Shown here: positions 3,500-50,531 of the stretch, piece after piece
How positions within the stretch are numbered: position 1 is the first letter of the stretch
Layout: each line of letters begins with the position of its first letter
Translations under genes and position numbers: made by a program
Virus record (IMG/VR): IMGVR_UViG_3300036852_000099
Span: 1-56,187 of that record
Reading direction: 5' to 3' (one strand)
Length of the DNA: 56,187 bases
Origin: a virus
Lineage: Duplodnaviria; Caudoviricetes
The notes under the pieces: generated by a model
Databases searched by the model: none
Told to the model about the DNA's origin: nothing
The model's input: only the letters and a program-made list of their open reading frames with translations

Positions 3500-3791
3500 C
3501 TTCCCTCCTTTTGAGTCTGGCCTCACTGACTTTGGTGGAAAAGCACACCTTACACTCACTGCGCAGACCGTAGCGGCCTGCAGGCTTACCCTTACGGGTT
3601 CGACGGTAGAAATAGCGAGGGACTGCGGGGTACTCCAGCCCACAGCCCTTGCACTCGATAGTACGGGCACGACAGGATAGGCATACACGCTGCAGGTGCA
3701 GGTGTGGTCGCTCTGACAACCACCCTGCACTACCAGTGAACATGGCCTCCTCGTACTCGTTACCACAGGCACTGCAACTAGACATTGGCAT
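3462..3791 (-). CDS. Cys-rich zinc-finger protein
   Basis: Four CxxC pairs, including 'CKGC...FYRR...GLRSECKVC', a Zn-ribbon often found with HNH domains. Confidence 0.6.
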   Translation of the reverse strand: MPMSSCSACGNEYEEAMFTGSAGWLSERPHLHLQRVCLSCRARTIECKGCGLEYPAVPRYFYRRTRKGKPAGRYGLRSECKVCFSTKVSEARLKRREDDRHRGTPARRL

Positions 3792-5175
3792 TGACTTCCT
3801 CTATAGCCCGAATGCAGGCTAACACGCAGGGTTCGATCACGTGGCGCTCGTTGAATGCCCCGTTCACATTCAAGCTGTCCGGCCAGCGCGATGCTATGAC
3901 GTGCCTCAGCGACTGCATGATGGGGTAGTTCTTCACTAACTCGCCTATGGTGTGGTGCAGCGTGGTGCGATCCGAGTGGCGTGTGCGTAGGGCATACGAC
4001 AGGATGGTGGATGACCACACCCGCGAGTCGTTGAATACGTCACTATCGTACTTCATCTTCAGGGCAGTGACCGCGTTATTCAGGCTGTCCAGCATGTAGG
4101 CCGTGATCGAGGATACCTGCTGCCAGACCACCCGACGCTGGGCTGAGTCGTCCAGGGTTCGCATGTCGATCTGGTCGGCTGTAATGCCCCATGCACCAGT
4201 ACACAGGCTGTGGACTAGCTGCGACAGTGACGACAGCTGCTCCCACGTGGCTGGGTTGTGCTTGTGCGGCATGGCCGATGACCCGACTACACCGGATTCG
4301 TCCCACCACTCGCCCTCACTGTACAGGAATCGGGCGGTGATGGCCAGTCGGTGAATAGCCGCTGCTACTCGGTCTATCAGTGCAAGTAAGGCGTACTCGT
4401 TGTGGCGCGGGGCAGTCTGGGTGGCGTGTTTGGCCAGTTCCATGACCGTTGGTGGTATACGCATGTGATCACACACGGATGCTAACACGTCGCGTTCGAA
4501 CAAGGTAGAGGATAGGTCTACCTCGCGACGGATGAAACGACGCTGGACGTGGCTCGTGCCAACTGCACCGCGCACCGACTTGGCCTGAACCTTGAACTTC
4601 TCCAGGTCGAGAAAGATGCCCTGGAACTCGACCATGTGACCCATCAGCCGGAAGCCCTGCGTGATAGGCTCGGCTACCTGCATGTGGGTGTAACCTCGGC
4701 ACGGGTAGTCCTTAGTTGCTGCCACCTGTCGTGCCATCATCCGCACAACCCGCCGGAGCAGGTGTCGAATCTCAGTGACAGTCTGGGCTATGCGAACCGA
4801 GTCGACCAGATCGACCACATCGCTGCTCGTCATATCCAGGTGTACAAGGTCGTGTGGCATCGAACCACCGTCCTTTTCAACTAGGCGGTGGACTGCCCCT
4901 TGTGCCAGTTGGCGCAGGGCTTCGACCTCGTGACCGACCTCGCGTTCGTGGGTACGGACTGCCCTTACTAGTGCGTCCAAGCCCAAGTCGAACCACTCAT
5001 CGTTGTACTCCAGCAAGGCTTCAGCGGTAGTGACGAATGACAGGTCGCTTATACCTGCATAGTGCTTGGACTGGCACAAGGCCACCATCGCCCAGACCTG
5101 CAGCATCAGGCTGTACCGTTGCCCGTCATCCCAGATGTTGTCCATGTCGTTGGTAGTGTAGCGGCTGGCGTTCAT
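3778..5175 (-). CDS. purB: Adenylosuccinate lyase (PurB-like, fumarase/ASL superfamily)
   Basis: N-terminal 'SRY', 'HLDMTSSD', 'GYTHMQVAEPIT', 'GAVGT', 'TQTAPR' and the signature 'GSSAMPHKHNP..E'. Probable start MNASRY at 5175 (465 aa). Confidence 0.9.
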   Translation of the reverse strand: MNASRYTTNDMDNIWDDGQRYSLMLQVWAMVALCQSKHYAGISDLSFVTTAEALLEYNDEWFDLGLDALVRAVRTHEREVGHEVEALRQLAQGAVHRLVEKDGGSMPHDLVHLDMTSSDVVDLVDSVRIAQTVTEIRHLLRRVVRMMARQVAATKDYPCRGYTHMQVAEPITQGFRLMGHMVEFQGIFLDLEKFKVQAKSVRGAVGTSHVQRRFIRREVDLSSTLFERDVLASVCDHMRIPPTVMELAKHATQTAPRHNEYALLALIDRVAAAIHRLAITARFLYSEGEWWDESGVVGSSAMPHKHNPATWEQLSSLSQLVHSLCTGAWGITADQIDMRTLDDSAQRRVVWQQVSSITAYMLDSLNNAVTALKMKYDSDVFNDSRVWSSTILSYALRTRHSDRTTLHHTIGELVKNYPIMQSLRHVIASRWPDSLNVNGAFNERHVIEPCVLACIRAIEEVNANV

Positions 5176-5465
5176 ACCCTCACCTTGAAGCGGGGTACGA
5201 CGCACACCAAATAGCTCTGGCGCGGCATGTAGGGTGGGGATTCGACTACAACGACAAGACCACCCTCCCCCAAATCGCCCACGATCCTGCCCTCTGTCCA
5301 TACGTCCTCCGTCTGGCCTACGGTCTGGCCTCCACCGTCGATAGTGAGTACGTGGCATGGTTCAGTACTCCTAGCCCATGCCTGCCGCGCTGCATCGAAG
5401 AGGTTCGCACCGCCTTCTTTGCGCATAAACTCAGGTCGGTTGTCCGTGTGGTTTCCGTTGTTCAT
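5172..5465 (-). CDS. Hypothetical protein
   Basis: 4-bp overlaps with both neighbours; RBS present. Confidence 0.6.
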   Translation of the reverse strand: MNNGNHTDNRPEFMRKEGGANLFDAARQAWARSTEPCHVLTIDGGGQTVGQTEDVWTEGRIVGDLGEGGLVVVVESPPYMPRQSYLVCVVPRFKVRV

Positions 5466-6238: not shown

Positions 6239-6407
6239 GTGAGTCCCTTAACTCTAGATCGTACTTCTTGAATAGCTGGCTAACACGCTGGAAGGATATC
6301 CCGTACTCCTTCGCTGTCTGGCGTAGGGTGTGGCCAGCCATGTAAAAGTCGTGCATCTGTACTGCCCGTGCACGGTGGCGACTACGCTGGGCTTCCTGTC
6401 GGGTCAT
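6183..6407 (-). CDS. Small helix-turn-helix DNA-binding protein
   Basis: HTH pattern 'AGHTLRQTAKEYGISFQRVSQL'. Confidence 0.65.
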   Translation of the reverse strand: MTRQEAQRSRHRARAVQMHDFYMAGHTLRQTAKEYGISFQRVSQLFKKYDLELRDSHGRLPSERPAAQEGSPQA

Positions 6408-6415
6408 ACGTGCCA

Positions 6416-7024
6416 CTATTCGTGCTCCAGTAGGCGCTTGGCCAGTTCCAGGGTGTGTCCGAATAGGTAGTCCCAAGCCACATCGACGTTGTAGGCGTAC
6501 TTGCCTGTGACCTCTGCAGCGGGTTTGCCCTGTGCCGACTGGATCACCGACCATGCCAAACTCACGTGGTTCAGGTCGAACTCACCATCGGGCTGGAGGG
6601 GCAGGTCACCATCCAATGCCCACGCGGTGTCAGACGTTCCATCGGGTGTGAACAGCCGACCTTCCTTTGTGGCTTGGTGGAAGGTGGCCTCAGTGCGGGT
6701 ATTGCCATCACCTGAGTTGTAGGGCTTCACACCCGCCTGCTCCAGGTAGTGATCGCCTAGTGCGCTGTAGGCATCACCTAGGTTAGCCCGTATCTCCTCC
6801 TCAGTAGGAACGTGGCCATGCAGCGCGTCTATTTCCGCCTGATGTGGATGGCGTGGGCGGGTGTCACCACGCAGGTGACGACTAAGGCGTGGGTCGTCCG
6901 GACGCAAGCGCTTGGTCTGGTGTTCAGGTTCATAGTCTGGCGTTGGTGTGTTCTCGGTGTTGCCCTCGTACACAGGCTCGGCGGGTTCAGTCGGCTGGTC
7001 GTCGTTCACTGGCATGTCGCTCAT
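6416..7024 (-). CDS. Hypothetical acidic protein
   Basis: 202-aa ORF with an AGGAGG RBS. Confidence 0.65.
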   Translation of the reverse strand: MSDMPVNDDQPTEPAEPVYEGNTENTPTPDYEPEHQTKRLRPDDPRLSRHLRGDTRPRHPHQAEIDALHGHVPTEEEIRANLGDAYSALGDHYLEQAGVKPYNSGDGNTRTEATFHQATKEGRLFTPDGTSDTAWALDGDLPLQPDGEFDLNHVSLAWSVIQSAQGKPAAEVTGKYAYNVDVAWDYLFGHTLELAKRLLEHE

Positions 7025-7641
7025 TTTGTGCCTCCTATGGCATCAACTAACTCGCCACCATTTTCGATTTTGTGGCCTTTCGACGCGGCCATTGCGATCA
7101 GGAAGTCCCGCGTTAGGTGGCGATGACAGAACTTCCCTGGTTTACAGTAGCACTGCAAGACTATTGGGTAGTCAACGGCGATGATGTCCCAGAACCTCTG
7201 CGGTGTAGCTAGGTAGCGCCTATTCAGCAGTTCGCTGTACAGGTCGCGAAAGCCCTCCTCGCTTACTCGTTCGTACTTGGCGTAACGCGGATCAGTGTCA
7301 CCCGACCAACGCTTATAACCAGCTATGAGCCACCAGTCTGGTGCAAGCCAGGGGTAGTAGGCCTCGTCACCGACTGCGGCATCGCTGTATGTGACCGAGT
7401 AGATGAGGTATGGCTTCAGCGGATCAGACCAGGGCGCTACAGCCTGCCCATACTGGCATGTGTAGATTCGTTCGGTGACCTTGGCGGGGATACGCGGTGG
7501 CTGTCCCACGTTTGCAGCGCCTTTGCGCGGCTTCTGCTGCTGGGCTGGTCGGCTGTCACGGATACGGCTTTTGTCCATGATCTCGACCTCTGGCAGTTCC
7601 AGCCTGTCACGCGATTTGACGAACTTGCTAAAGTCTACCAT
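7021..7641 (-). CDS. Hypothetical protein with a CxC-x5-CH motif (DUF4326-like C-terminus)
   Basis: 'VLQCYCKPGKFCHRHL'; GGAGG RBS before MVDFSK. Confidence 0.55.
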   Translation of the reverse strand: MVDFSKFVKSRDRLELPEVEIMDKSRIRDSRPAQQQKPRKGAANVGQPPRIPAKVTERIYTCQYGQAVAPWSDPLKPYLIYSVTYSDAAVGDEAYYPWLAPDWWLIAGYKRWSGDTDPRYAKYERVSEEGFRDLYSELLNRRYLATPQRFWDIIAVDYPIVLQCYCKPGKFCHRHLTRDFLIAMAASKGHKIENGGELVDAIGGTK

Positions 7642-7643
7642 AG

Positions 7644-7868
7644 CTAACCCCTCCACAGGTCACTAGGTGGTGGTTCAGTCGGCACGACTGGTATGCGACG
7701 AACCTCCTCGATCCATCGGTACATGGCCACACCCACGTCCAGCCAGATGGCCATGACCAGTGACTTGATAAGCAGATGCACACCCAGCATCTCTAGTAGC
7801 AGGATGCCAGCCATCAGGTACAGCGATAGCAGTGCGTAGCGTAGCAGGATGCTGACCAGGGTTCTCAT
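7644..7868 (-). CDS. Small membrane protein
   Basis: Two hydrophobic segments. Confidence 0.55.
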   Translation of the reverse strand: MRTLVSILLRYALLSLYLMAGILLLEMLGVHLLIKSLVMAIWLDVGVAMYRWIEEVRRIPVVPTEPPPSDLWRG

Positions 7869-13293: not shown

Positions 13294-13994
13294 TTAGCTG
13301 GAAAGGAGGTAGAGGCGCTCGGACACATCCTGGAACTTGTCCATGCTGTGGTCTAGTCCGAGGCTCATCTTGCTATTCATCTCGTGGAGGATCGTGGCTG
13401 GGACGGGGATATCACCATAGAACGAGGCCACTACCGTGTTACGCTTCGCCCACTGTTTCATGGCCATCCAGAAGCGTTTGTGGTTGAACTCGCGATTCAG
13501 GTACTGTGTACCCTTGGGCAGATATGGCGGGTCGACGTACACCATCATGCCTTCGGGCGGGTTGTTGTCCCACTGCGACCAGCTGCAGGCTACGAAGTCC
13601 ACGCCCTCTAGCAGCGGCTTCTGCTTCAGTAGTGACCGTTTCAGCGCTGCAGCGAAGTTGATGTTGCCCTTAGGATCACGGGCGTAGGTGTCGAACCACT
13701 TACCACCGAACGAACACCCGATGTCTATGAAGGCGACTGGTGTGGCATATCGGCCAGTAGGCTGTAGTCGGCCTCGCTGATGTGTTCAGGTGGAATCCAC
13801 CCACCCTGGATGGCTTTGTACAGGGCGATCAGGTACTGGTTGGCATCGCTGCCGATGCGTATACCACCCTGGATCTTCTCCATCACGACAGCCGACCCTA
13901 GGAATGGCTCTAGGTACGGACGACCAGCGCGTAGCTCGTTGATTATGGGTGCGTAGTGCTTTGACTGTCGGAACTTCCCGCCCATGTACCTCAT
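13294..13994 (-). pseudogene. Dam/D12-class N6-adenine DNA methyltransferase, frameshifted
   Basis: The N-part 'MRYMGGK...YLEPFLGS' stops at 13725. The rest ('GCSFGGKWF..YAR...VYVDPPY') is in another frame. Confidence 0.85.
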
Positions 13995-14350
13995 TCGGTA
14001 GCCCTCCCATCACCGATGCTGAGGCCATTCCTGAACCTGTCACGCAGGGATAGACTGTTAGCGCTGGTCTGTTCGTATAGGCAATACACCTGATCAGGGT
14101 AATGGCCGGACGCGTCTTTGCAGGTCGACTCAGCCAGTTCACGGGGCAGGTTTCGAATGACCGGATGGGCAGTCAGGTCGTCGTACAGATGCCACCATAC
14201 GGTGAACAGACCGACCTCGCTCGGTGGTTCTTTCGGCTGGGCTTTATACTCACGGGCTAGACCGATGGCGATCTGCATCTGCAGGTCTAGCTGCTTATTG
14301 GCGTAGTTCTCGCGCTGCATGCGCTCTAGTTCCTCACGTAGGGTCGGCAT
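13991..14350 (-). CDS. Hypothetical protein
   Basis: GAGGAGG RBS before MPTLREEL. Confidence 0.6.
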   Translation of the reverse strand: MPTLREELERMQRENYANKQLDLQMQIAIGLAREYKAQPKEPPSEVGLFTVWWHLYDDLTAHPVIRNLPRELAESTCKDASGHYPDQVYCLYEQTSANSLSLRDRFRNGLSIGDGRATE

Positions 14351-17473: not shown

Positions 17474-18848
17474 AGGCATAGTAGCCTTCGCCCATGACGT
17501 GATCGGACTGGACGGGTCAACCAAGAGCAAGACTCTAGCACCCTACCAAGCCGATATCCTCAGCCAGTTCGCACGAGACAAGCGTCTGGCAGTCCGAGGA
17601 TTACACGGCATCGGCAAGACCGCCATCGCATCGTGGGTGGTGCTGTGGGCGCTGTCAGTGTTCGAAGGCGATGTGAAGGTTGTGACCACAGCCAGCGCAT
17701 GGAGGCAGTTAACGCATTACCTCTGGCCGGAGATACGCAAATGGGCGCAGGTCTGCAAGTGGGAGGTCATGGACAATGGGGTACAGATCCGATACGGCAA
17801 GGAACTACTGGAGTACTCGATCAAACTGAACGCCAAAGAAGCCTTCCCTGTTGCGTCGAACAACCCCTCCCTTATTGAGGGTGCGCATGCCTCTACGCTG
17901 GTGTACGTGTTCGATGAGGCGAAGGCGATTCCGGACGAAACGTGGGACTCAGCCGAGGGTGCGTTCTCGACAGGCAACTGCTACGCACTAGCGATATCCA
18001 CACCAGGGGACGCAACTGGTCGATTCTACGACATCCACAGCCGGAAGGCGGGGTATGAGGATTGGGGTATACGGCACGTCACACTAGACGAAGCCATAGC
18101 TGCTGGGCGGGTCGACGCAGATTGGGCAGAAAAGCGGCGGATACAGTGGGGCGAGAACAGTCCGGTGTACCTGAACCGCGTATTAGGCGAGTTCAGTAAG
18201 AACGACCCGCATGCCCTCATCCCGCTGCAGTGGGTGGAGGAGTCCAACAACCTCTGGCATGAGATGGGTGGCAAAGGCAAGAAGGAAGACAGCCTGACAT
18301 ACGGCTTGGACGTTGCGTGGCAGGGCGATGACAAGTCCAGCCTAGCCCGTAAGCGGGGTGTCGTGGTCGAGTCCCTGGAGATGTACGGAAACTACGACCC
18401 GATGGAACTGGCTGGAATGGCCATAGTCCAGATGGCTGGCGATAAGGAGTCCGCCATAGCAGTCGACTCCAACGGCATCGGTGCAGGGGTATACGCACGA
18501 CTGAACGAACTCGGCTACAACGCAGTACCCTGTAACGTGTCCGAGGGTACAGATGAAAGGGACGAGTCTGGCGAGTTAGGGTTCTTCAACCTGCGATCCT
18601 TCATTTGGTGGAGGATGCGCGAGTTGCTCGACCCGAAGAACCCAGACCGCATAGCCCTCCCTCCTGATGATGGTCTTACTGGCGACCTGACTGCTCCGAA
18701 GTGGTCACCGACTAGTAAGGGTCTGATCAGGGTAGAGGGCAAGGAAGACATCAAAAAGCGGCTGAAACGGTCAACCGACTCAGCTGATGCAGTGGGTCTG
18801 GCAATCTACGCGGATATTGAAACACAGGCATGGACGGAGATATGGTAG
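17358..18848 (+). CDS. terL: Terminase large subunit (likely start TTG at 17436)
   Basis: Walker A 'GLHGIGKT', Walker B 'YVFDEA', and nuclease motifs 'GLDVA..GDD' and 'STDSADA'. Confidence 0.93.
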   Translation: MSMTLRYSPESKLTSKQRLGQSLVEGLSPSKHRNYQSPEGIVAFAHDVIGLDGSTKSKTLAPYQADILSQFARDKRLAVRGLHGIGKTAIASWVVLWALSVFEGDVKVVTTASAWRQLTHYLWPEIRKWAQVCKWEVMDNGVQIRYGKELLEYSIKLNAKEAFPVASNNPSLIEGAHASTLVYVFDEAKAIPDETWDSAEGAFSTGNCYALAISTPGDATGRFYDIHSRKAGYEDWGIRHVTLDEAIAAGRVDADWAEKRRIQWGENSPVYLNRVLGEFSKNDPHALIPLQWVEESNNLWHEMGGKGKKEDSLTYGLDVAWQGDDKSSLARKRGVVVESLEMYGNYDPMELAGMAIVQMAGDKESAIAVDSNGIGAGVYARLNELGYNAVPCNVSEGTDERDESGELGFFNLRSFIWWRMRELLDPKNPDRIALPPDDGLTGDLTAPKWSPTSKGLIRVEGKEDIKKRLKRSTDSADAVGLAIYADIETQAWTEIW

Positions 18849-21800
18849 AAAACGCACTGCTACAGCCATCTGCTATCCTCCCCTTCGATCCGGATGCTAT
18901 CACCAGGGCAGTCCAGAACCCTGAAGACGGGGATGGTGAGCGCTACGTCATCATGAACGACGACTTAGTGCCGTATTCAACCTACAGGTCGAGCTTCCAC
19001 ACTGCGTGGGAGCGGTCACTGTCTGGCCTGCAGGTTAGTGAGCAGGCTAAGCAGCAGGCATACGCGATATCCGCTGCAGCATTCGCAGCTACTCAGTACC
19101 GCTGTCTGACCATATCGCAAGTCCCTGGTGTGATAGTCGACCAGTCCAAGAACGATCCGGTGGAGTGGCATCCGCTTATTGGGTTCATGCCCTATATGGG
19201 GAAGCTCATGTGGCAGATCGAAGTGTCGCTGCTGATTTGGGGCGTATGCTACCTCAAGAAGGTGTACAACCGCTACGGCTACCCATCGAGCCTCTGCTGG
19301 GTGCATCCTGAGGATATCACGCCACAAACCGACCAGTACGATGAAGTGTACGAGTACTACGAACGCATGAGCGGCGTGGCCATCAAGCGTCATCAGATGG
19401 TGGAAATTCGGACGTTCGACCCTGACAGGTCACTGCAGGGGAAGTCGGCATATGAAGTCGCCATGTCCCACATCACTACTGAGCGCAATCTCGTGATGCA
19501 TGCTGGGTCGTTCTTCTTTAACTCAGCGCGTCCCGATGGCATCCTGGTTTCGAAGACCCGACTGGATAAGGAGGGTAAGCTCAAGGCCAAGAAGGATTGG
19601 GAGCAGTTCAAAGGGTCTGGTAACGCGTGGCAGACTTTCGTGTCGGGTGGCGATTGGGACTGGATACCCATCACGATTCCACCTGTCGACTTGGCCATGA
19701 CTGAACTGAAGGACGGGTCACAGAAGGACGTATGCGCTATCTTCCGGACTAACGGCGCTCTGATCGGTCTGGCCAGCGTCTCCGACCCGCTATCGGCGGG
19801 GTCTACACTGGCGACAGTTAAGCGGAATCACGTCGAAGCTGTCACCCTGCCAGAGTACAACGACATCGCCCACGACATGAACACGCAGTGGCTCTGGACT
19901 GACTTTGACGAGAAGAACTACTACACCCTGATAGCCAACGAAGCCGACATGCCGATCTTGTCGGATGTGTCAGGGGAAATGTCCACAGTTGCAGTGAACC
20001 TGACTAACCCGCTCAACCCTGTGGTCGACTACGACGAAGCGCGTAAGTTCATGAACCTATCACCCCGCGAGGGGTACATAGGTCGACCACCGGATCAGTC
20101 ACTGGCTATGGTCAACGGTACACTGATCACGGTTAACGAGGGTCGGCAGTTCCTGAGTCTTGAACCGTACCAGATTGACATGCTGAAGACACCAGACGGT
20201 AAGCTGATCCGAGCGTCTGATCTCGGCAAGTACCTGGATGCCACGATGGAACTGATAGTAAGCCCACCTGCTCCCCCAGCCGGAGGCGGATTCGGTGGTG
20301 GGTTCGGTCTGACAGGTGGTCAGCCCATGCTCCCATCCGGTGGACAACCACAGCCACCCACTGCACCGACACCGAATAACCCTTACGACGCATTCCGGCT
20401 TCCACTGTCGAACTCGCGTTCTGGCAGCGGGTGTGCAGTCGTGCTGCAGTTCAGTGGTGATGAGTTGGTGAGGTCTATCCAGACCATCCTCAAGACCCAA
20501 CTGCCAGACAGCATCGCCCATGTCTGGTGTGATCCTAAGGACTTCCACCTTACACTGTACCAGTGCGAGGTATGCTCGATGGCTCAGGAAACCGAGCTAT
20601 ACTCAGCCCTGAATGTGACCAAACCTCTCCCCGTCATGGTGAAGGGTACTACCTCCTTCCAGCAGGACGGGTATATGGTCTTGGTGCTGCAGATCGAACC
20701 ATCCGAAGAGTTAGTGGCGCTGCAGTCGAAGATCTACGAGAAGGCTGAGTCGATTGGGATCACCAGTTCATCGGACTACAGCGAACCGTCGAAGTGGAAG
20801 CCCCACATCACCGTAGCCTACCTTGATCCGGAGACACCCATCGAGGAGTCGTTGTTCAATGTCCAAGTTCAGCCAACCGCCATCGCAGTTACTAAATCGG
20901 AGTACCAGCCTACTTACACCAAAGATATCGCTGCTGCACCTAAAGAGGAAGTGGGTCGAGGACGCAGGTCGAATACACCCTACGTGGAGGTTGCAGTCGA
21001 CTTCGCCAATAACGCCTTCCTTAAGACCGCACAGCGTGTACTGTCTCATTGGGCGGCGACGGAGGGAGGCATAGAGGTCAACTGGTATGACCCAGCCACC
21101 TTGCGTATGCCCCTGATAGAGATGCAGAACCTCACCTCCATGCAGGCGGCACGGGCTATGGAACTGGTGTCCTCGGCTGGTATGGCCAGGGCAGATGTGT
21201 ACACGGGTGAATACGCGATCCGCGACGGTCAAATAGGCGTGGTGGTTGCAGCGACTGATGAGGTCGACAACATCCGTAGTGCAGCGATGCTGCAACTGGA
21301 CGAATTAGCAGATACCTTCCATGCCGAGGGATGGTCACCGTTTGTGCCACTAGGGGCGATCCAGGGCGAGTCCGAGGCTCGGAGTCTATGGGCTTCCGAT
21401 GGTTATCCGCTGGTACTGTCGGCTATTACCATGTACACGGGTACACTGCGTCGTGGGCGCTGGGAGTTGCGCCACAAGACGCAGGTATCAAAGGAACTGG
21501 TCAACTGGCAGCGGGTAGTAGAGCGCAAAGGTCGCGATCACTGGTTCACACCAGAATACGCAGGTCAGCTGGTGTCGGACTTCGTACGGTCAGCCCTGCA
21601 AGACACCGATGCCACTATCGATGAGGTATTCGCACGGGCTAAGGAGATCGAAGAGTCCGGCCTGACCTACGTCGATCCTGATATCGAACCCACACCAGAG
21701 GAGGCGCTGGAGTATTGGCGCAACTACGACGAGGCTAAGGCCGACATAGGGCAGGACTGGTACTCGTACATGACTAGGGTTCTACCGGATATCTTGTCGT

Positions 21801-23284
21801 GGATCAAGACGGAGACCAAGCCATCCTCGGTGACCGAGGTTTTGGCACGACACCACGATAAACTCCGCGACGATTGGGTAGGGACGGAGGAGAATCCTGG
21901 TGCACTGTACTCGGTGGTTCTGGCAGGCATGGCGGCTGGGAACGAGGCACTAGTTAAGGGTGTCAGCATGAACCCTGAAAGCCGCGTTGCAAAGGTCGGT
22001 GTGGCCATCGAGTGGGATCTCCTGTCCACACAGGCTCGTGACTTTGCCAGACAGTACACCTACAAACTCATCAAGGGTATCGACGCGACGACTGCCAGGA
22101 TGGTGCAGGGGATATTCGATGAGTGGACTACTACAGGCAAGCCATTCACGGAACTGGCCAAGGCGCTGGAGGTCGTGTTCAAGGATAAACAACGCGCTGC
22201 ACAGATAGCCCAGACCGAGGGTATACGGGTCTATAACGAGGGCGCATTCAAACGCTGGACGGATGTGGGTGTTAAACGGGCTAAATGGCGCACAGTCCAG
22301 GATGGCATCGTCTGTCGGGTATGCAAGCCACTGAATGGTCAGGTGGCTGACATGAAGACAGGCTGGATCAGCCCATCGCGTAAGGGCGGGTTCAAGACCT
22401 ACACCACCTCAGCCCATAGCGGGTGCAGGTGCTTCCGGACACCAGACACGACGGGCATACTGGAGGATGTTAAACAGGATTACAAGCCCGTAAAGGTCGT
22501 AGCCCCAGCACCACCGCCGATGCAGGTTTCGTCCGAGTTCGTCGCTCCGACACCCGCACGGGTAGCAGGTCTGGATGCCTACCGTGATCTTAACACAGAT
22601 GAGCCGACTGGCCGAATCCGCCAACCTGGAGATCCGGTACTAGGCGAGATTTACAAGCGGAACGGCTACGATGGTAGGCCGAATGTGGTAACGCCAGAGA
22701 CTATCGACCAGCTACGGGCGGATGGTCATAGGATCGTCTATCGTGGTGTCACTGATGCCAAGTTCGCTGAGCAGTTCAGGGACGGGGAGTACTTCCCTGG
22801 TCTAGGGATATACGGCAATGGGACATACACGGCAGTGGGCAGCGATGCCGACAACCACACCGATGCTCTGGACACAGCCCGTGAGTATGCTACCGAGCAG
22901 GGGTACGTGATGCGCATGGCGATCCATAAGGATGCTAAGATCGTCACCCTGAAGGAGATCCAGCAGATGGCGCAGGACGAGCTAGAGGCCTCGGCGGAAA
23001 GAGTACGGCAGGCTAGGAAAGCCGTGTACGCAGTACCCCACGACCACCCTGATGCAGCTGCTCTGGAGGCGACATTCCAGAGTGAGAAGGCCAGGGACAA
23101 CGACGTGCATAGGCTGGTGATGGATGAAGGCAGATATGCCTCCATCATGGGCTACGATGGTGTACTGGTCGAACGCAACTCAGCAGCGGGTCAAGGTATA
23201 GGCGACTACTTGGTGATGCTGAACCGAACCGCCATAGCAGTAGATACGAGAAACTGGAATGGGAAAGTGAGCTATAACGACTAA
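18842..23284 (+). CDS. Fusion of portal, 2H phosphoesterase (two copies, one degenerate), MuF head morphogenesis domain and ART-like C-terminal domain
   Basis: Portal motifs 'LLIWGVCYL' and 'FFFNSARPDGIL'; HxT motifs 'HLTL' and 'HITV'; MuF 'IAQTE...KWRT..D..VC..C...H.GCRC'; C-terminal 'YRG...G.G.YGNGTY...A.EYA...GYDG'. Confidence 0.85.
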   Translation: MVENALLQPSAILPFDPDAITRAVQNPEDGDGERYVIMNDDLVPYSTYRSSFHTAWERSLSGLQVSEQAKQQAYAISAAAFAATQYRCLTISQVPGVIVDQSKNDPVEWHPLIGFMPYMGKLMWQIEVSLLIWGVCYLKKVYNRYGYPSSLCWVHPEDITPQTDQYDEVYEYYERMSGVAIKRHQMVEIRTFDPDRSLQGKSAYEVAMSHITTERNLVMHAGSFFFNSARPDGILVSKTRLDKEGKLKAKKDWEQFKGSGNAWQTFVSGGDWDWIPITIPPVDLAMTELKDGSQKDVCAIFRTNGALIGLASVSDPLSAGSTLATVKRNHVEAVTLPEYNDIAHDMNTQWLWTDFDEKNYYTLIANEADMPILSDVSGEMSTVAVNLTNPLNPVVDYDEARKFMNLSPREGYIGRPPDQSLAMVNGTLITVNEGRQFLSLEPYQIDMLKTPDGKLIRASDLGKYLDATMELIVSPPAPPAGGGFGGGFGLTGGQPMLPSGGQPQPPTAPTPNNPYDAFRLPLSNSRSGSGCAVVLQFSGDELVRSIQTILKTQLPDSIAHVWCDPKDFHLTLYQCEVCSMAQETELYSALNVTKPLPVMVKGTTSFQQDGYMVLVLQIEPSEELVALQSKIYEKAESIGITSSSDYSEPSKWKPHITVAYLDPETPIEESLFNVQVQPTAIAVTKSEYQPTYTKDIAAAPKEEVGRGRRSNTPYVEVAVDFANNAFLKTAQRVLSHWAATEGGIEVNWYDPATLRMPLIEMQNLTSMQAARAMELVSSAGMARADVYTGEYAIRDGQIGVVVAATDEVDNIRSAAMLQLDELADTFHAEGWSPFVPLGAIQGESEARSLWASDGYPLVLSAITMYTGTLRRGRWELRHKTQVSKELVNWQRVVERKGRDHWFTPEYAGQLVSDFVRSALQDTDATIDEVFARAKEIEESGLTYVDPDIEPTPEEALEYWRNYDEAKADIGQDWYSYMTRVLPDILSWIKTETKPSSVTEVLARHHDKLRDDWVGTEENPGALYSVVLAGMAAGNEALVKGVSMNPESRVAKVGVAIEWDLLSTQARDFARQYTYKLIKGIDATTARMVQGIFDEWTTTGKPFTELAKALEVVFKDKQRAAQIAQTEGIRVYNEGAFKRWTDVGVKRAKWRTVQDGIVCRVCKPLNGQVADMKTGWISPSRKGGFKTYTTSAHSGCRCFRTPDTTGILEDVKQDYKPVKVVAPAPPPMQVSSEFVAPTPARVAGLDAYRDLNTDEPTGRIRQPGDPVLGEIYKRNGYDGRPNVVTPETIDQLRADGHRIVYRGVTDAKFAEQFRDGEYFPGLGIYGNGTYTAVGSDADNHTDALDTAREYATEQGYVMRMAIHKDAKIVTLKEIQQMAQDELEASAERVRQARKAVYAVPHDHPDAAALEATFQSEKARDNDVHRLVMDEGRYASIMGYDGVLVERNSAAGQGIGDYLVMLNRTAIAVDTRNWNGKVSYND

Positions 23285-41032: not shown

Positions 41033-41461
41033 ATGCTGATGAAACCGAGACGACTTAGGAACGTAGTACGGCACGTGAACCGAGTAGCTGCAGTGATACA
41101 CCTACTCGTCGCACTGGTCGTGCTACTGCACCCATCCAAACCTAGCGAGTTCATTGTGTCAGTGTTGGGTGGATACTTCAGTACCCAAGCTCTGTCGTTC
41201 CTAATAGCTATGGCAGGGGTTAGGTGGGCGATATGGCCGATGACCTCATCCTGGTTGATGCTCTGTTGCCTGCCCATGCTGGTGCTTGCAGCATTCAATA
41301 CCGCATACCTGTTGATTGAAGAAACGCAGTCACTATGGCCTCCTATTGTGTACTACGGCTGTGGTGTCATCGTAATATCAGTTAACTGGTACTATCTACT
41401 GGAGACTGCAGGTGGAAGATTTGACGTTCCTATCGTTCCAAGTTCCGACACCCACACCTGA
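41033..41461 (+). CDS. Membrane protein with about four TM segments (holin/antiholin candidate)
   Basis: Basic N-terminus followed by four hydrophobic stretches. Confidence 0.6.
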   Translation: MLMKPRRLRNVVRHVNRVAAVIHLLVALVVLLHPSKPSEFIVSVLGGYFSTQALSFLIAMAGVRWAIWPMTSSWLMLCCLPMLVLAAFNTAYLLIEETQSLWPPIVYYGCGVIVISVNWYYLLETAGGRFDVPIVPSSDTHT

Positions 41462-42056
41462 TCTAGACCCGACTAATATCGGGTCGGTCATAACAGCCGT
41501 AAGTGTGATCGCGATTTTCATCGCCAATCTTATCATCCAATACAAGGCTGGTAAGAAGGAGATACCCAACCAGTCAAAAGATGTAGTAGATGTGGTGAAC
41601 GAGAATAAGCACCTAAAGGAGAAGGTGGACAGTCTACTGGCAGCTAACACCAAGCTGCTGTCCATGACGAACCTCGGCACGATAGTCTGCATCGAGGACG
41701 ACCCGAATGACACCGACCTGCTACGCAGGCAGCTGAAACGGATCGGGCTGGCCAATCCGGTGGTGTGGTTCGATAGTCTGGAGATGGCCTACATCTTCAT
41801 TGGTGAAAACGCGGTGCTGTTCATCATGGTCGACGTTAGCATGATAAGCAATGGCTTCCGATTTCTAGAGACGCTGAAGGACAACCCTGACACCAGGGAT
41901 ACACCCATCATACTGGTGTCAGGGACGCAGGTGGAGGACATCACAGGATACCGGAAGGGTGCTATAGGCTACTGTGAAAAGCCAGTAAACATCGAGAAGC
42001 TGCTGAATGTACTGAACCTTCACGGGTTCGACATGAGTATAAGGATGGTACTATGA
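41412..42056 (+). CDS. TM + coiled coil + CheY-like response-regulator receiver domain
   Basis: 'IVCIEDDPND', phosphoacceptor 'IMVDVSM', 'TPIILVSG' and 'GAIGYCEKPV'. Confidence 0.85.
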   Translation: MEDLTFLSFQVPTPTPDLDPTNIGSVITAVSVIAIFIANLIIQYKAGKKEIPNQSKDVVDVVNENKHLKEKVDSLLAANTKLLSMTNLGTIVCIEDDPNDTDLLRRQLKRIGLANPVVWFDSLEMAYIFIGENAVLFIMVDVSMISNGFRFLETLKDNPDTRDTPIILVSGTQVEDITGYRKGAIGYCEKPVNIEKLLNVLNLHGFDMSIRMVL

Positions 42057-45949: not shown

Positions 45950-46232
45950 ACTCTCCCCTAATAGCTATAGCCTCTGCCTCATCAGCAGTTCGAATTAAAC
46001 CGATACGTGCACCTGCAGCTTTCCATTCCAGCAGCTTCATGCACTGAGCGATGGTCGGGTGGTCGTCATAGCTCTTTTTGGCCTCCATAGCGAAAGCCCG
46101 ACCCTGGTACGATCCAACGAGGTCTGGTTCACCCAGACGCGAGAAGGGTGAGCCGTGAATCTTGATCACGACACACCCCAATTTCTTTAATCGCGCCAGG
46201 GCAGCATCGACCACTGCCTTTTCTAGCGGCAT
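45882..46232 (-). CDS. VRR-NUC nuclease
   Basis: 'GEPDL...AMEAK...TIAQ'. Confidence 0.85.
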   Translation of the reverse strand: MPLEKAVVDAALARLKKLGCVVIKIHGSPFSRLGEPDLVGSYQGRAFAMEAKKSYDDHPTIAQCMKLLEWKAAGARIGLIRTADEAEAIAIRGEYVGLTEILRIQDETLGTPEDRT

Positions 46233-46963
46233 TAGACCTCCGCTGGCACTTTACGCCATGCACCCAAGCTACGGGCTAGTACCAGGAGGCAATTCTCCAT
46301 GTCAGGGTACACCCACGTATCCAGGTCATGCGCTTCGACGTGCTTGGCTAGTTCGTCCTTGTCACCCCACACCACGACTGTCTTGCCCAGCGACTTGGCC
46401 ATCTCGATCTCACGGATAGTACCAAATCCGCGTTTGTCGGTCATGTTGACCACCATGCCCTGACAGCTGGCCAGTGCAGCGCGGTTGATCTGGCTGATGA
46501 AGACCCTAGGCAGCGGTTGGTTGTGTCCTACCTGGAAGGCGGTAGACGGGTCATAGCTGGTGATGCCATAGTTGGCCAAGGTCGACTTGGCGTGTTTCCT
46601 CCAGGTCTTGGCGTATAGCTCATCAACCGCGTCGATGCTCCCTGCCAGATAGACGGTAGGATGTGGGTGCTGCTCGTCGCCTAGGATCGGGATTTCCTCA
46701 CTGCCCCATGACCCATCCAGCAGCATCTTCCCGATTAGGCCGTAGTTCAGCACGTCCAAGAACGTATCCTCGATACCCTCGAAGTTAGGGGCGTATGCCC
46801 CTGGTCGGGTGAGGTTTAGCAGGCGGTGGATTTTGTCAGTCAGCCGGACTGCCACACCGTATACACCAGTCTTACTGATGTTGTCACTGCCATAGTCGGC
46901 ATTCTTGCGCTCCATCAGGTCGAGCGCGTCCTTGATGATCTTCTCAGCGGCGGCTTTGTTCAT
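46232..46963 (-). CDS. DUF1599/Nmad1 domain fused to a nucleoside 2'-deoxyribosyltransferase/N-glycosidase-like domain
   Basis: N-terminal 'RKNADYG...RLTDKIHRL...IEDTFLDVLNY'; C-terminal 'VYLAGSI...YDP...GFGTIREIEMAKSLGKTVV'. Confidence 0.75.
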   Translation of the reverse strand: MNKAAAEKIIKDALDLMERKNADYGSDNISKTGVYGVAVRLTDKIHRLLNLTRPGAYAPNFEGIEDTFLDVLNYGLIGKMLLDGSWGSEEIPILGDEQHPHPTVYLAGSIDAVDELYAKTWRKHAKSTLANYGITSYDPSTAFQVGHNQPLPRVFISQINRAALASCQGMVVNMTDKRGFGTIREIEMAKSLGKTVVVWGDKDELAKHVEAHDLDTWVYPDMENCLLVLARSLGAWRKVPAEV

Positions 46964-47144
46964 CGTTCTGTTCCCTTTCATGTGACTCGTAGCAGTGTGC
47001 GTGAATGTCCTGGTCGTGCACCCAGGAGTATGCGATCTGGTCGACGTGCACATCGACTTCGTGCTTGCAGTAGGGGCAGATTGGGAATACGCTGTCGAAC
47101 ATGCCCTCATCGCCCTTGTCCCACATATCTCCGATGTTTATCAC
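46944..47144 (-). CDS. Small Zn-binding protein
   Basis: 'CPYC...HAHC'; fills the gap in the operon. Confidence 0.55.
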   Translation of the reverse strand: MINIGDMWDKGDEGMFDSVFPICPYCKHEVDVHVDQIAYSWVHDQDIHAHCYESHEREQNDEQSRR

Positions 47145-47629
47145 TTTCCTGTACTCCCAAACCCAGCGCTACCACGCTCGGTGTCCTTAGTCGCGTACTG
47201 GAACGCGTCGATTGGCATGAACTCCCACTGCACTGGAATCACCAGATGGTGGAAAAGTATCTGAGCCAGCCTAGTCCCTTTCGGTACTATGACCGTCTTG
47301 CCGTTGGGATTGGACACACCGATGAATAGCTCACCTGTGTACCCCTGGTCGATTATGCCCTCCTGCACCTGCAGATGCCACGTGCGAAAGGTCGAACTGC
47401 GATTGGTGATCCGGCCATACACCCCATCGGGCATCCGGATATGCACCCCTGTGTGAACGTCCACAAAGCTCCCTGGAGGGATCTCGATGTGTTCGATGGT
47501 GTGCAGGTCGTAGCCTGCATCACCCTTATACTTCCGTGTAGGCTGGCACGTGTCCAGATTGGCAGGGGCGAATATGACCGGAGGCGGCGCTAGCACCCAC
47601 AGCGCAAATCGCCTGAGTAGTTGCCTCAC
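47141..47629 (-). CDS. dut: Trimeric dUTPase
   Basis: All five motifs: AGYDL, RSS, GIIDQGYTGE, RLAQ and RGSAGFGSTG. Confidence 0.9.
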   Translation of the reverse strand: MRQLLRRFALWVLAPPPVIFAPANLDTCQPTRKYKGDAGYDLHTIEHIEIPPGSFVDVHTGVHIRMPDGVYGRITNRSSTFRTWHLQVQEGIIDQGYTGELFIGVSNPNGKTVIVPKGTRLAQILFHHLVIPVQWEFMPIDAFQYATKDTERGSAGFGSTGK

Positions 47630-48723
47630 AGGTCTTCCCCTGTCTCGACTACCTGAAATCCCTCGCCACCTGTGCCGACCAGCGACACCGGAGTACCAAA
47701 CCGCGCTTCCACGTAGTCGATGAATGCACGGGCGGTCTGGCTGAGTTCATGCTCCAGGGTCTTGCCACGATCCTGAGGACTGATGTAGTCCATGAAGGTG
47801 ATCGCGATGGAAGTAGGTGCGTTTAACAGCACTGACTGGTCGACCAAATCCTCGTCCCACCGACCAACACGGCGTACCTTTTTGGTGACGGTGGTCTTTT
47901 CCACGACTGTCTCACCAATTAACTCCGACAGTTGATCCCACGTTACCTCATCCTTCAGGTCACCACTGTTCCCAGCCACACGGATAGGGTAGGTGCGGCA
48001 TACCAGCATTACCTGATCCACGTGCTGGGGCGGGATGCCAGCATCAGCGGCCATCTGTGCGGCGTTCGTGCCGTTGCTGGTCACATATGGCCACTGGCCA
48101 TGAATAAGGTCGAGACCACTGCCCTGTGTACCCTCCAGGAGGATATCTTGGCCGAGGTTGCGCTGCTGCTGCAGGTAGCGCGGGGTGTCGTCGTGGAGGC
48201 ACTGCGACAGCTTACTGCCATCGCTGAACTCAACATCACCCTCCTGTTTGATGTACTCGGCAACAGTCAGGAACTTCAGCGGATCGCGCATCAGGCGATC
48301 ACGTCGTGCTGCACCGACACCCTTACCAGTCGAACCGATACGCTGGTGTAGCTCACCCTGTACACCTCCTTCCTCGTCCATGTGCCATTGGGATATCACC
48401 CCACAGCGGCTGTCCACGATCAGGCGGTGGGTGAAATACGGGTCGATTTCCAGTATCTCGTTAACTTCGCGTTTCAGGATGTCCATCTCGATCAGACCAC
48501 CCCGACCAATCACCAGGATCGCGTTAGGGTTCACCCAGCCACATGGGACAGTCTGCATGACCCGCTTCACACCCTGGTGCATGAAAGTGTGACCTGCGTT
48601 CGTGCCACCCGTCCGGACATGGACATTGTAGCGATCCGCGATATAGGCCACGATTACACCCTTGCCCTCCGACCCAAACTGCCCTCCGACTAGTGCGAGG
48701 ACGTGTCCTGTTCCTTTAGCCAT
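47626..48723 (-). CDS. purZ: 2-aminoadenylosuccinate synthetase, PurZ0 type
   Basis: PurA fold with 'GGQFGSEGKG' (Ser replaces the PurA catalytic Asp), 'NAGHT', 'IGSTGKG', 'EGTQG', 'RTYPIRVAGNSG', 'TTVTKKVRRV' and 'TFMD'. Confidence 0.88.
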   Translation of the reverse strand: MAKGTGHVLALVGGQFGSEGKGVIVAYIADRYNVHVRTGGTNAGHTFMHQGVKRVMQTVPCGWVNPNAILVIGRGGLIEMDILKREVNEILEIDPYFTHRLIVDSRCGVISQWHMDEEGGVQGELHQRIGSTGKGVGAARRDRLMRDPLKFLTVAEYIKQEGDVEFSDGSKLSQCLHDDTPRYLQQQRNLGQDILLEGTQGSGLDLIHGQWPYVTSNGTNAAQMAADAGIPPQHVDQVMLVCRTYPIRVAGNSGDLKDEVTWDQLSELIGETVVEKTTVTKKVRRVGRWDEDLVDQSVLLNAPTSIAITFMDYISPQDRGKTLEHELSQTARAFIDYVEARFGTPVSLVGTGGEGFQVVETGEDL

Positions 48724-48728
48724 TGTCT

Positions 48729-50483
48729 TTACTCCGTCATTAGTTGATAGGGCTGGAGTTCGCTCCAGCGTTTGCCGACTGAAACATCCACCTTAAACCG
48801 TACCTTCCACTCCTGGTCGGGCGGTGGTGGGATAGTGACCATAGTCTCTGCAGCGGCATCGATCAGCCAGGGCTTATCCTCCGGTATCTCCATTACTAGA
48901 CTGTCGTGAACGTGTAGTAGTTGGTGTAGACCCTCACCACGCAGGTTGCGCCACACGTTAGTAGCAGCAATCCGCATCATCTCGGCCACACCACCCTGAA
49001 TCAGGCCAGAACTGGCCGTGTTCTCGTAGTTGTGCTCATCGAATCGGCGCAGTCGTCCAGTGAACATCTGGATATACCCGTCGCGCTTGGCAGCACCCAG
49101 ACAGGCTTGGTACAGCCGCTTCATTTCGGGGTGCACCTTGTGGTACTGGTTCAGGTACTCCCTAGCCTGTTTGATGCTAACCTTCAGGTCATTCGCCAGT
49201 GCCTTGTCGCCTATGCCGTACTGCATCGAGAAGTTCAGCCGCTTTGCAGCGTCATAGTCGATGTTGACCCACGCGGCGGTTTCCTTATGGACGTTTACAC
49301 CGTTGTTGATCATGCGCAGCATATTGGTGGCGTTGGCGTAGTGTGCGCCTAGGTAGATCTCCGCCTGCTTATAGTCGGCCACCACGAACAGGTGACCAGG
49401 ACGAGCCACGAAGACCTTCTTGATGCCAGATCGCGGGTCGTTGATGTCGTCTTTGATCTGGCGTGGGATCGCCTGCAGGTTAGGCTCACTGCAGGACAAC
49501 CGACCCGTAGCCGTACCTGTCAGGTTCAGGTTAGGGTGGATCACCCCATCAGCATCCGCATGCTCCAGGAAGGCCTCGTAGTAGGCACTCTTCATTTTCA
49601 CATGGCGACGGTATCGGATGATCTCGTCTACTCCAGGTTTGTCGAGCGTTTCCAGGATATCAACAGCACTGCTACTCACACCAAAGAGAGCCTGCACCTG
49701 CTTGGGGCTGTTAGGGTTGACCGGATAGCCGACTATACGAGCCAGCGCGATCTCGGCCTCCTTCTTTCCGTCGATACTGTCGTGTATGCTCTGGCGTGTT
49801 TGTCGTTTGTCCAGCAGCATACCCCTGCGCTCAATGTCCACTACAGCCAGTTCGAAGACGTTAGTCTCCTGCCACAGCCGATACAGCCCAGAGTCCGCTA
49901 GCTTTTCAGCGTAGAAATCACGGAGTCGTCTGGTGTACAGTACGTCGTCCTCGGCATAGGCACTGACCATACTGGCAGGCAACTTCCACATCTGGCCTTT
50001 GTCACCTACGTGCATACTGGCACGGCGCTTGGTGTAGCCTGCTGCTTTCAGTGCGGCCAGCAGTTCTTCGGATTCATCCGCTGCAGTTGGGTCGATGTAC
50101 TTACGGGCGAGGTACTTCAGGGCGTGGCTGTGTTCATTCTCGTTGTACAGGTGGGCAGCTAACATCGCGTCCTCTATCCTGGTCGGGAACGCGAATCCTT
50201 CATTCAGCAGGTACTTGATATCGAACTTACCATTCCAGAACAGCAGGGTCTTGGGCAGTGCCAGTGCCATGCGCAGCGCGTCCATCTGGCGTGGGTCAAG
50301 GTTCTCGCCTTCCCCATGCCGGAATGGGAAGTAGTAGGACTCATTATCAGCTTCTATGGCGATACCGCAGATCAGGTCACCACCATAGGTGTCCAGTCCT
50401 GTTGTTTCCAAGTCAACAGTGATACGTTCGCAGTCCCAAACGTGCACCATCGCATCATAGAAGTTGTCGCTATTTACCAGCAT
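48729..50483 (-). CDS. Family A DNA polymerase with 3'-5' exonuclease (DpoZ candidate)
   Basis: Exo motifs 'DLETTG', 'NGKFD' and 'YAEDD'; polymerase motifs 'DYKQAE', 'KRLNFSMQYG' and 'VHDS'; no 5'-3' exonuclease; adjacent to purZ. Confidence 0.92.
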   Translation of the reverse strand: MLVNSDNFYDAMVHVWDCERITVDLETTGLDTYGGDLICGIAIEADNESYYFPFRHGEGENLDPRQMDALRMALALPKTLLFWNGKFDIKYLLNEGFAFPTRIEDAMLAAHLYNENEHSHALKYLARKYIDPTAADESEELLAALKAAGYTKRRASMHVGDKGQMWKLPASMVSAYAEDDVLYTRRLRDFYAEKLADSGLYRLWQETNVFELAVVDIERRGMLLDKRQTRQSIHDSIDGKKEAEIALARIVGYPVNPNSPKQVQALFGVSSSAVDILETLDKPGVDEIIRYRRHVKMKSAYYEAFLEHADADGVIHPNLNLTGTATGRLSCSEPNLQAIPRQIKDDINDPRSGIKKVFVARPGHLFVVADYKQAEIYLGAHYANATNMLRMINNGVNVHKETAAWVNIDYDAAKRLNFSMQYGIGDKALANDLKVSIKQAREYLNQYHKVHPEMKRLYQACLGAAKRDGYIQMFTGRLRRFDEHNYENTASSGLIQGGVAEMMRIAATNVWRNLRGEGLHQLLHVHDSLVMEIPEDKPWLIDAAAETMVTIPPPPDQEWKVRFKVDVSVGKRWSELQPYQLMTE

Positions 50484-50531
50484 GGTCGTGTCCTTTGGGT
50501 AGGGGTGGTGGCTGTCCCACCCCAATAGAGG

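Follow-up and report, generated by a model that had tools for sequence, protein, structure and literature searches.

Positions 46232 to 50483 of IMG/VR virus record IMGVR_UViG_3300036852_000099 (Duplodnaviria; Caudoviricetes) carry, on the minus strand, four closely packed genes for a family A DNA polymerase (PolA), a PurA-like synthetase, a dUTPase-family enzyme (Dut), and a fusion of an Nmad1 (DUF1599) module to an NDT domain (Nmad1::NDT). This layout agrees with the cluster given in an earlier note on the sequence. The whole stretch of 56,187 nucleotides that was analyzed is called the window. The region appears to serve replication and the nucleotide pool in an uncultured tailed phage, whose DNA most likely contains 2-aminoadenine (Z) made through the PurZ0 route. 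The window looks like a new, divergent member of the PurZ0/DutZ/DmtZ type from an uncultured, non-actinophage clade, and its new-looking variant features are the Nmad1 module in these clusters and a phage-encoded lyase, which may belong to the pathway. The earlier note had proposed an undescribed pathway architecture. This proposal fails because the same accessory set, with DutZ and DmtZ, has already been characterized by Poubanne et al. (NAR 2026, PMC12884076), and the cluster is not to be pursued as a new pathway because a Z cluster lacking DatZ and MazZ is already explained in print. The predicted features are as follows.

48729..50483, minus strand: family A DNA polymerase with a 3'-5' exonuclease domain, from Pfam DNA_pol_A and DNA_pol_A_exo1.
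47626..48723, minus strand: PurZ0-type succino-aminodeoxyadenylate synthetase (PurA homolog) of 365 amino acids, from PF00709, phrog_1211, and the residue state.
47141..47629, minus strand: DutZ-like trimeric dUTPase-family enzyme of 162 amino acids, from Pfam dUTPase, five motifs, and a tree.
46944..47144, minus strand: CxxC open reading frame (ORF) of 66 amino acids between dut and the fusion gene, from the ORF call and sub-threshold Pfam matches.
46670..46963, minus strand: Nmad1 (DUF1599) three-helix module, N-terminal part of the fusion, from phrog_1485, DUF1599, AF2, and BFVD.
46232..46669, minus strand: DmtZ-like NDT-superfamily domain, C-terminal part of the fusion, from PF05014, Foldseek, VIA, and residues.
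3778..5358, minus strand: divergent PurB-like adenylosuccinate lyase, from Lyase_1, with its start likely near 5175 (MNASRY...).

The synthetase matched Pfam PF00709 (Adenylsucc_synt, E = 6.3e-59) and phrog_1211, which is annotated "2-aminooxy adenylosuccinate synthetase" (1.5e-73). Its nearest PDB entries were the short Pyrococcus PurA (2.2e-53) and then 7vf6, labeled "PurA-like" (7.8e-42), with the PurZ proteins of phiVC8 and S-2L more distant. The motifs GSEGKG, EGTQG, RTYPIRVAGNSG, and TFMD, which the earlier note had read from the sequence, were all found in the translation. Ser18 replaces Asp13 of PurA and Asp312 is retained in TFMD, and this S/D state is that of the reference PurZ0 synthetases of Archimedes and AustinPowers; the S/N state was seen in those of phiVC8, Barton, and Bacillus phage 140. 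From PurA biochemistry, we take the Asp in TFMD to confer the use of GTP. Of the 142 aligned relatives and references, 138 had Ser in the column of PurA Asp13, where Salmonella PurA has Asp, and the 142 rows comprised 111 S/D (the window and 110 others) and 27 S/N sequences. All 80 related IMG/VR loci carried an S/D synthetase. In the passages of Poubanne et al. drawn on here, all 147 sequences of the phage PurZ group are reported to have Ser at this position, where 99% of true PurA sequences have Asp (PMC12884076), and the same Ser is used to define dZ genomes in the corresponding passages of Yang et al. (bioRxiv 2025).

Trees of PurA, PurZ, and PurZ0 sequences, which the earlier note had suggested, were built. 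A quick tree placed the window in an all-S/D clade of 49 rows with a support of 87 (two rows were not S/D at the first position), and a careful tree placed it in an all-S/D clade of 23 rows with a support of 93/83; the synthetase tree had one outgroup only and left out archaeal PurA. The window clade lay apart from the well-supported reference-PurZ0 clade, and the backbone was not resolved in either tree. A single S/D clade containing both the window and reference PurZ0 was not rejected by the approximately unbiased test (P = 0.35). The synthetase also scored 242.7 bits with NCBIfam NF038379 (amino_Aden_PurZ), under the cut-off of 300, and 291.5 bits with the archaeal short PurA model NF003295, which is above its PurZ score and under the cut-off of 368. 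Because both NCBIfam models stayed below cut-off and the backbone was not resolved, we word the assignment by residues: the name PurZ0-type refers to the diagnostic residues of the synthetase and not to its clade. In the same trees, long-form synthetases of 402 to 475 amino acids (P0177-P0267) formed a clade with a support of 98, in which 22 of 24 were S/N and which was separate from phiVC8-type PurZ; the S/N state therefore appears at least twice in the tree. P0172, which the quick tree places nearest to the window, carries Asn instead of Ser where PurA has Asp13, and its branch is long (1.2).

The family around this synthetase is large. IMG/VR held 223 synthetase relatives, and metagenomes showed a large family at 50 to 64% identity. 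Among deposited phages, 218 records matched the synthetase, all below 60% identity and at most 38% among the matches listed, and at the nucleotide level, the cluster had no match among deposited phages. Relatives were surveyed at 80 IMG/VR loci (designated by L and a number) with clade-specific profiles over 10 kb on either side of the synthetase. Across these loci, Dut was detected in 54, PolA in 55, NDT in 19, DUF5664 in 19, Nmad1 in 12, a lyase in 5, and DatZ in 1. Gene order was conserved in relatives at 57 to 60% synthetase identity. Pfam agreed with all 19 DUF5664 calls, with the fusion in L035, and with the three lyases tested.

The partners of the synthetase correspond to the set described for PurZ0 phages. 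According to the same passages of Poubanne et al. (PMC12884076), PurZ0 phages such as Ghobes and Wayne use DutZ and DmtZ in place of DatZ and MazZ, and some add DUF5664. DutZ is a Dut-like enzyme that hydrolyzes dATP, dGTP, and dUTP, and DmtZ is an NDT-like enzyme that cleaves dAMP and moves deoxyribose-5-phosphate to Z; dutZ is counted there in 98 of 98 PurZ0 genomes and dmtZ in 85, of which 77 have it fused to dutZ. NDT and dUTPase have been tied independently, from metagenomes, to dZ phages lacking DatZ and MazZ (Yang et al., bioRxiv 2025, in the passages drawn on here).

The Dut of the window matched the Pfam dUTPase family (8.7e-26) and kept AGYDL, RSS, GIIDQGYTGEL, RLAQ, and RGSAGFGSTG intact, five stretches to which we assign the names of the five dUTPase motifs. 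In a comparison with deposited phages, the best 30 of 1006 records belonged without exception to phages of Gordonia, Streptomyces, Microbacterium, and Arthrobacter, which are host genera of PurZ0-carrying phages, and the scores dropped in a step from 93 to 105 bits within the phages of these genera to at most 77 bits outside them. In a 16-row tree, a branch with a support of 100/99 put four DutZ-type sequences together with the window and its four clade relatives, apart from seven other phage Duts; this sample is small, and the seven include one Arthrobacter-phage Dut. By its sequence relationships, the window Dut belongs to the DutZ lineage, and it is presumed to be a dATP/dGTP/dUTP diphosphatase.

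The NDT domain matched PF05014 with 27.6 bits on the whole ORF (3.4e-6) and 29.4 bits on the domain alone (9.5e-7), against a cut-off of 28.8. Its predicted structure had a mean predicted local distance difference test score (pLDDT) of 71; Foldseek matched the model to DNPH1 (8rpt_B, 2.8e-5), and the VIA Z scores were 14.7 for 7m5h_B, 13.9 for MilB, and 11.7 for RCL. A PDB profile search with the fusion alignment matched the NDT half only (best 8pqp, 0.0023), and the Nmad1 half gave no match. When the domain was aligned to Archimedes gp53, which has all the DmtZ key residues, five of the six (Y, D, P, N, and E) were kept. The window equivalents of Ghobes Tyr6, Asp12, Pro57, Asn77, and Glu103 lie in VYLAG, SIDA, YDPS, QINR, and IREIE. 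Tyr6, Asn77, and Glu103 form the catalytic triad, and the residues kept include the Asn, which is unusual, and the Asp that reads adenine. The domain is a presumed dAMP N-glycosidase and deoxyribose-5-phosphate transferase.

PolA matched Pfam DNA_pol_A (1.3e-62) and DNA_pol_A_exo1 (2.7e-15). In 55 of the 80 loci, a PolA gene lay no more than 10 kb from the synthetase, and the adjacency of the two genes was conserved. The enzyme is presumed to be the replicase that incorporates dZTP, and its preference for dZTP is only inferred.

By homology to the enzymes characterized by Poubanne et al. (2026), from which every step is taken, the pathway could run as follows. First, dATP would be removed and dGMP fed to the synthetase. 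The PurZ0-type synthetase would then form succino-2-amino-dAMP from dGMP and aspartate, with GTP as the phosphate donor. From this intermediate, the PurB-like lyase of the phage would release fumarate and leave dZMP, which host kinases would convert to dZTP. The DmtZ-like NDT domain would destroy dAMP, yielding adenine and deoxyribose-5-phosphate, and it may move the sugar phosphate to free Z. Finally, the adjacent PolA would copy the genome with dZTP.

Several results, among them the two sub-threshold NCBIfam scores and the separate clade of the synthetase, weigh against this assignment. The presence of Z in this DNA is a prediction from the genes. PolA was not recognized as DpoZ, scoring 199.9 bits with NCBIfam phage_DpoZ_1 (cut-off of 500) and 71.4 bits with DpoZ_2 (cut-off of 350), and the best 30 deposited phage polymerases were at most 28% identical, ordinary, of mixed origin, and not DpoZ-specific. 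The window and its relatives have a deletion where DmtZ carries its lid residue, Trp124. The DutZ and DmtZ references used here, from Archimedes, AustinPowers, Typher, and Keanu, are related to the Ghobes and Wayne proteins that were assayed but are not those proteins. A gene for a D12-class N6-adenine methyltransferase, though split by a frameshift, is also present. The sub-threshold PurZ score, the PolA result, and this methyltransferase gene could be accommodated if the cluster yielded partial substitution, a further-modified purine, or ordinary purine and dUTP housekeeping instead of a full Z genome. We consider this improbable, given the universal Ser of the PurZ group and given that the synthetase, the DutZ-type Dut, and the DmtZ-type NDT together make up the characterized Z set (PMC12884076, in the passages drawn on here). 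Production of Z DNA by the PurZ0 route is retained as the preferred reading.

The absence of DatZ and MazZ, also noted earlier, was borne out within the 56187 bases. A Pfam search of the window's 80 ORFs, as the earlier note had suggested for HD and DUF550, found no HD, YfbR-like, DUF550, DUF5664, or MazG domain at E ≤ 0.01, and a six-frame search of the 56187 bases with PF12917, PF01966, PF04447, PF18909, and PF03819 found none at E ≤ 1. The Pfam positive controls were recovered: a DatZ-type domain in phiVC8 p25 and Barton gp38, DUF5664 and DUF550 in Barton gp37, and DUF5664 in AustinPowers gp47. In the six-frame search with PF04447 (DUF550), no control genome passed the cut-off either. The lack of DatZ and MazZ is expected because it is the normal state of PurZ0 systems.

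The genome had been called complete, which is not assured: the record is classed as linear in IMG/VR, CheckV estimates its completeness at 69%, and a terminal repeat was looked for in the window and not found. This leaves room for a DatZ or MazZ gene in a missing part of the genome, so that the accessory set would merely look incomplete. Since the record may be incomplete, relatives were also examined for these genes. Of 50 related records, 29 had a completeness of 90% or more. A YfbR-like domain occurred in two of the 50 (one above cut-off), and in one of the 29, below cut-off; DUF550 occurred in none of the 50, with a profile that was also silent in the control genomes. The window already contains terminase, portal, capsid, and tail-region genes and a full replication block, and its synthetase was found on a second contig of 56392 bases, close to the window's 56187. 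Published PurZ0 genomes, as far as the passages of Poubanne et al. cover them, employ DutZ and DmtZ instead (PMC12884076). A missing DatZ or MazZ thus seems very unlikely, and we keep to a PurZ0 route with the DutZ/DmtZ accessory set.

The phage's own PurB, which the earlier note had listed, was identified as the PurB-like lyase at 3778-5358. It matched Lyase_1 (4.7e-19) and scored 150 bits with TIGR00928 purB (cut-off of 326). The best 20 of its 29 PDB matches were all adenylosuccinate lyases, with 5eyt as the best (4.6e-16). The protein keeps HLDMTSSD, THMQVAEP, and GSSAMPHKHNP, the last aligned to GSSAMPYKRNP of 5eyt; we take these to be the adenylosuccinate lyase signature loop (SSxMPxKxN) and catalytic His motifs. 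In 5 of the 80 loci, a lyase gene lay no more than 10 kb from the synthetase, and in two of these it stood inside the cluster: L102 has a Lyase_1 gene at 1709-3061 (plus strand) in the order synthetase, lyase, NDT::Dut, and L106 has one at 6094-7437 (plus strand) in the order lyase, PolA, synthetase, NDT, Dut. The lyase of the window is about 42 kb from the cluster in a linear record and is 27% identical to the lyase of the close relative G001, and both observations count against its belonging to the pathway. A pattern scan of IMG/VR with the window lyase gave no match, and deposited phages gave 13 weak matches at about 25 to 30% identity. In described systems, the lyase step of the Z pathway is left to the host, according to the PurZ literature including the passages of Poubanne et al. 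drawn on here (PMC12884076). On the basis of sequence, the window lyase is presumed to perform the dSMP-to-dZMP step.

The Nmad1 module scored 20.8 bits with DUF1599 (PF07659) on the whole ORF (4.9e-4) and 23.4 bits when rescored (7.8e-5), against a cut-off of 25; that of the relative L035 scored 26.8 bits. It also matched phrog_1485 (4.3e-15). Folded alone with AF2, it gave three helices over about 85 residues with a pLDDT of 75, and the top matches of this model in BFVD were viral proteins named "Nucleotide modification associated domain 1" (TMq of 0.59 to 0.78). A word-indexed homolog search with Nmad1 alone gave no candidate. A literature search found no link of Nmad1/DUF1599 or of phage-encoded PurB to Z pathways, the supplements of Poubanne et al. 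and Yang et al. being outside that search.

Nmad1 occurred in several arrangements among the 12 loci. In close relatives, it is a separate gene directly upstream of NDT; a standalone gene adjoins NDT in L030-L033 and adjoins Dut, with no NDT detected, in L040 and L073. It is fused to NDT in L035, L066, and the window, and the fusion is known from the window and three other metagenomic proteins. An Nmad1-like stretch was also found at the N-terminal end of the Dut ORF in L076 (10984-11805, plus strand) and in L081 and L082 (10945-11805, plus strand), and at the C-terminal end of the synthetase ORF in L101 (9686-11251, plus strand). Nmad1 is a recurrent, movable part of PurZ0-type clusters, and in our reading, it is a general nucleotide-metabolism module that was recruited to them. 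Nmad1 and DUF5664 were never found together (0 of 80 loci, with 12 having Nmad1 only, 19 DUF5664 only, and 49 neither), and DUF5664 is directly upstream of NDT in L041, L052, and L062, as Nmad1 is in L030-L033. As a working guess, and as the least secure step of the analysis, the sequence and the predicted model would make Nmad1 an all-alpha dNTP pyrophosphohydrolase-like unit in the place that DUF5664 takes in sister phages. It might then be catalytic, a distant relative of MazG, MazZ, and DUF5664 that supplies dATP/dGTP hydrolysis beside or fused with DmtZ, DutZ, or PurZ0, which we put forward tentatively.

Structural comparison gave weak matches to such enzymes. In VIA comparisons with the PDB, MazG, PRA-PH, RS21-C6, or other pyrophosphatases accounted for 10 of the best 50 rows, 5 of them among the top 10, with Z scores of 6.3 to 6.5 for MazG, PRA-PH, AF1178, and S-2L MazZ; S-2L MazZ (7ody) had a Z score of 6.4 and a root mean square deviation of 3.2 over 64 aligned residues. 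A divergent MazZ among the hypothetical ORFs had been named as an outcome that would overturn the first interpretation, and what was found in this direction is that the weak fold matches of Nmad1 concentrate on MazG-type proteins, including S-2L MazZ, with none of them significant. Three motif blocks of Nmad1 and DUF5664 align in register. Homology between the two is not claimed.

Other results tell against a catalytic Nmad1 and its role in these clusters. Every Nmad1 VIA Z score was at most 7.9, under the caution level for helical proteins, and a Foldseek search of the Nmad1 model against the PDB gave none at E ≤ 0.001 (best E of 2.7). Comparison of Nmad1 with DUF5664 by hhalign gave a probability of 3.2% (P = 0.014, 13 versus 19 sequences), and comparisons with DUF5664 and DUF550 using shallow alignments gave less than 1%. 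The mutual exclusion with DUF5664 had a Fisher P of 0.06, and the loci are phylogenetically nonindependent. Nmad1 in the Dut and synthetase fusions was visible to the clade-specific profile only and not to Pfam, which was blind to the Nmad1 parts of L066, L076, L081, L101, L040, and L073. Among deposited phages, Nmad1 was present in 50 records, to which the ten most frequent PurZ-carrying organism names contributed none, and in the two deposited Nmad1 contexts viewed, no synthetase, Dut, or NDT lay within 8 kb.

The same PurZ0 pathway could operate with a nonenzymatic Nmad1, acting in helical oligomerization or as a nucleotide-binding or regulatory adaptor that tethers or tunes the fused NDT, Dut, or synthetase. 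The module is short, it is attached to three different enzymes and also occurs within multidomain viral proteins of 200 to 460 amino acids, its fold matches are no better than generic helical ones, and it showed no significant profile link to DUF5664, DUF550, or MazG. These features suit an adaptor. The charged residues K20, D23, R40, D43, K44, R47, E62, and D70 are invariant in seven Nmad1 sequences, a pattern more in keeping with a site for a metal or nucleotide than with a simple adaptor. Nmad1 also exists as a standalone gene, and it holds the slot of DUF5664 upstream of NDT without co-occurring with it. A nonenzymatic Nmad1 is possible but doubtful, on a par with the catalytic one, and Z DNA production by the PurZ0 route is common to both.

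These results indicate that PurZ0-type clusters are abundant in uncultured phages beyond the actinophages studied so far. Nmad1, a domain widespread among phages to which no function has been assigned, is repeatedly wired into Z clusters, in the place that DUF5664 takes elsewhere, and is cheaply testable biochemically. In addition, some Z-cluster phages bring their own adenylosuccinate lyase, a step that the literature assigns to the host. If Nmad1 is catalytic, the Z pathway would, together with the phage PurB, be more self-sufficient than any described, and the Nmad1 proteins found in crAss-like and dairy phages would gain a first function. For the synthesis of modified DNA, enzymes that produce dZTP and alter dNTP pools are of practical interest.

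The gene boundaries in the cluster were set as follows. The PolA ORF spans 48729-50525 from a TTG at 50525, and the ATG at 50483 fits the N terminus of the relatives (MLVD...). The fusion ORF spans 46232-47110, and its likely true start is the ATG at 46963 (MNKAAAEK, with AAGGGA before it), giving 243 amino acids; a large public protein collection holds the same 243-amino-acid gene call. The first 52 codons of the 292-amino-acid fusion ORF were dropped as coding sequence, being of low complexity, unmatched in relatives, and overlapping the 66-amino-acid ORF in another frame. This CxxC ORF (46944-47144) overlaps the ends of both dut and Nmad1::NDT, and its best Pfam match was Cys_rich_CPXG, sub-threshold at 0.017.

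Elsewhere in the window, the D12-class (Dam-like) N6-adenine DNA methyltransferase lies at 13294-14009 on the minus strand as two overlapping frames, an N-terminal frame at 13725-14009 and a DPPY frame at 13294-13785. The split would result from a frameshift, an error in sequencing, or decay of the gene. An adenine methyltransferase gene is odd in a phage possibly without adenine in its DNA. An early-gene block upstream of the replication genes holds a DUF932 protein (514-1611, minus strand, 6.1e-19) and a DUF488-N3a-like protein (7021-7656, minus strand, 9.2e-6, just below cut-off). A single ORF of 1484 amino acids (18830-23284, plus strand) combines portal, 2'-5' RNA ligase-like (2H phosphoesterase), and Mu F-like head morphogenesis domains, and a 214-amino-acid protein with a response-regulator receiver domain (41412-42056, plus strand, 7.7e-10) is encoded among the late genes.

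Compared with known systems, the window is closest to the PurZ0-DutZ-DmtZ phages. Like them, it has an S/D synthetase beside PolA, a Dut of the DutZ lineage, and an NDT with Y, D, P, N, and E, and like them, it is without DatZ and MazZ/DUF550. In contrast, the reference PurZ0 synthetases are only 33 to 34% identical to that of the window and fall in another clade, and the phage evidently infects a host other than the actinobacteria of the known sets. The label "Paludibacter" on the metagenome-assembled genome that contains L010 was set aside, being a binning label on a contig of 18 kb. In the window, NDT is fused to Nmad1 and not to Dut, DUF5664 and the Trp124 lid are absent, PolA is outside the DpoZ-1 model, and the phage has its own PurB-like lyase. 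The PurZ-DatZ-MazZ/DUF550-DpoZ systems of S-2L, phiVC8, and SH-Ab 15497 share the central chemistry, in which dGMP and aspartate give the succino intermediate, and their accessory enzymes likewise remove dATP and supply dGMP. Their synthetases, however, are S/N and ATP-using and are paired with an HD-domain DatZ and MazG-like/DUF550 proteins, none of which the window has.

Among single domains, the nucleoside 5'-monophosphate N-glycosidases DNPH1/Rcl and MilB are the best structural neighbors of the window's C-terminal domain and also of DmtZ; they are only 15 to 19% identical to the window NDT, and their catalytic Asp is Asn in the window, as in DmtZ. The dATP/dGTP diphosphohydrolase DUF5664 (PF18909; Wayne DUF5664-1 and the N-terminal domain of the SH-Ab 15497 enzyme) is, like Nmad1, a small helical protein of these clusters, but significant sequence or profile similarity between the two was not found. 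The Nmad1/DUF1599 proteins of crAss-like Bacteroides, Lactococcus 949-group, Streptococcus, and Clostridium phages are the same domain by identity (31 to 42%) and predicted fold. In those phages, the domain stands alone or in other multidomain proteins, whereas in the window it is fused to a DmtZ-like NDT in a Z cluster.

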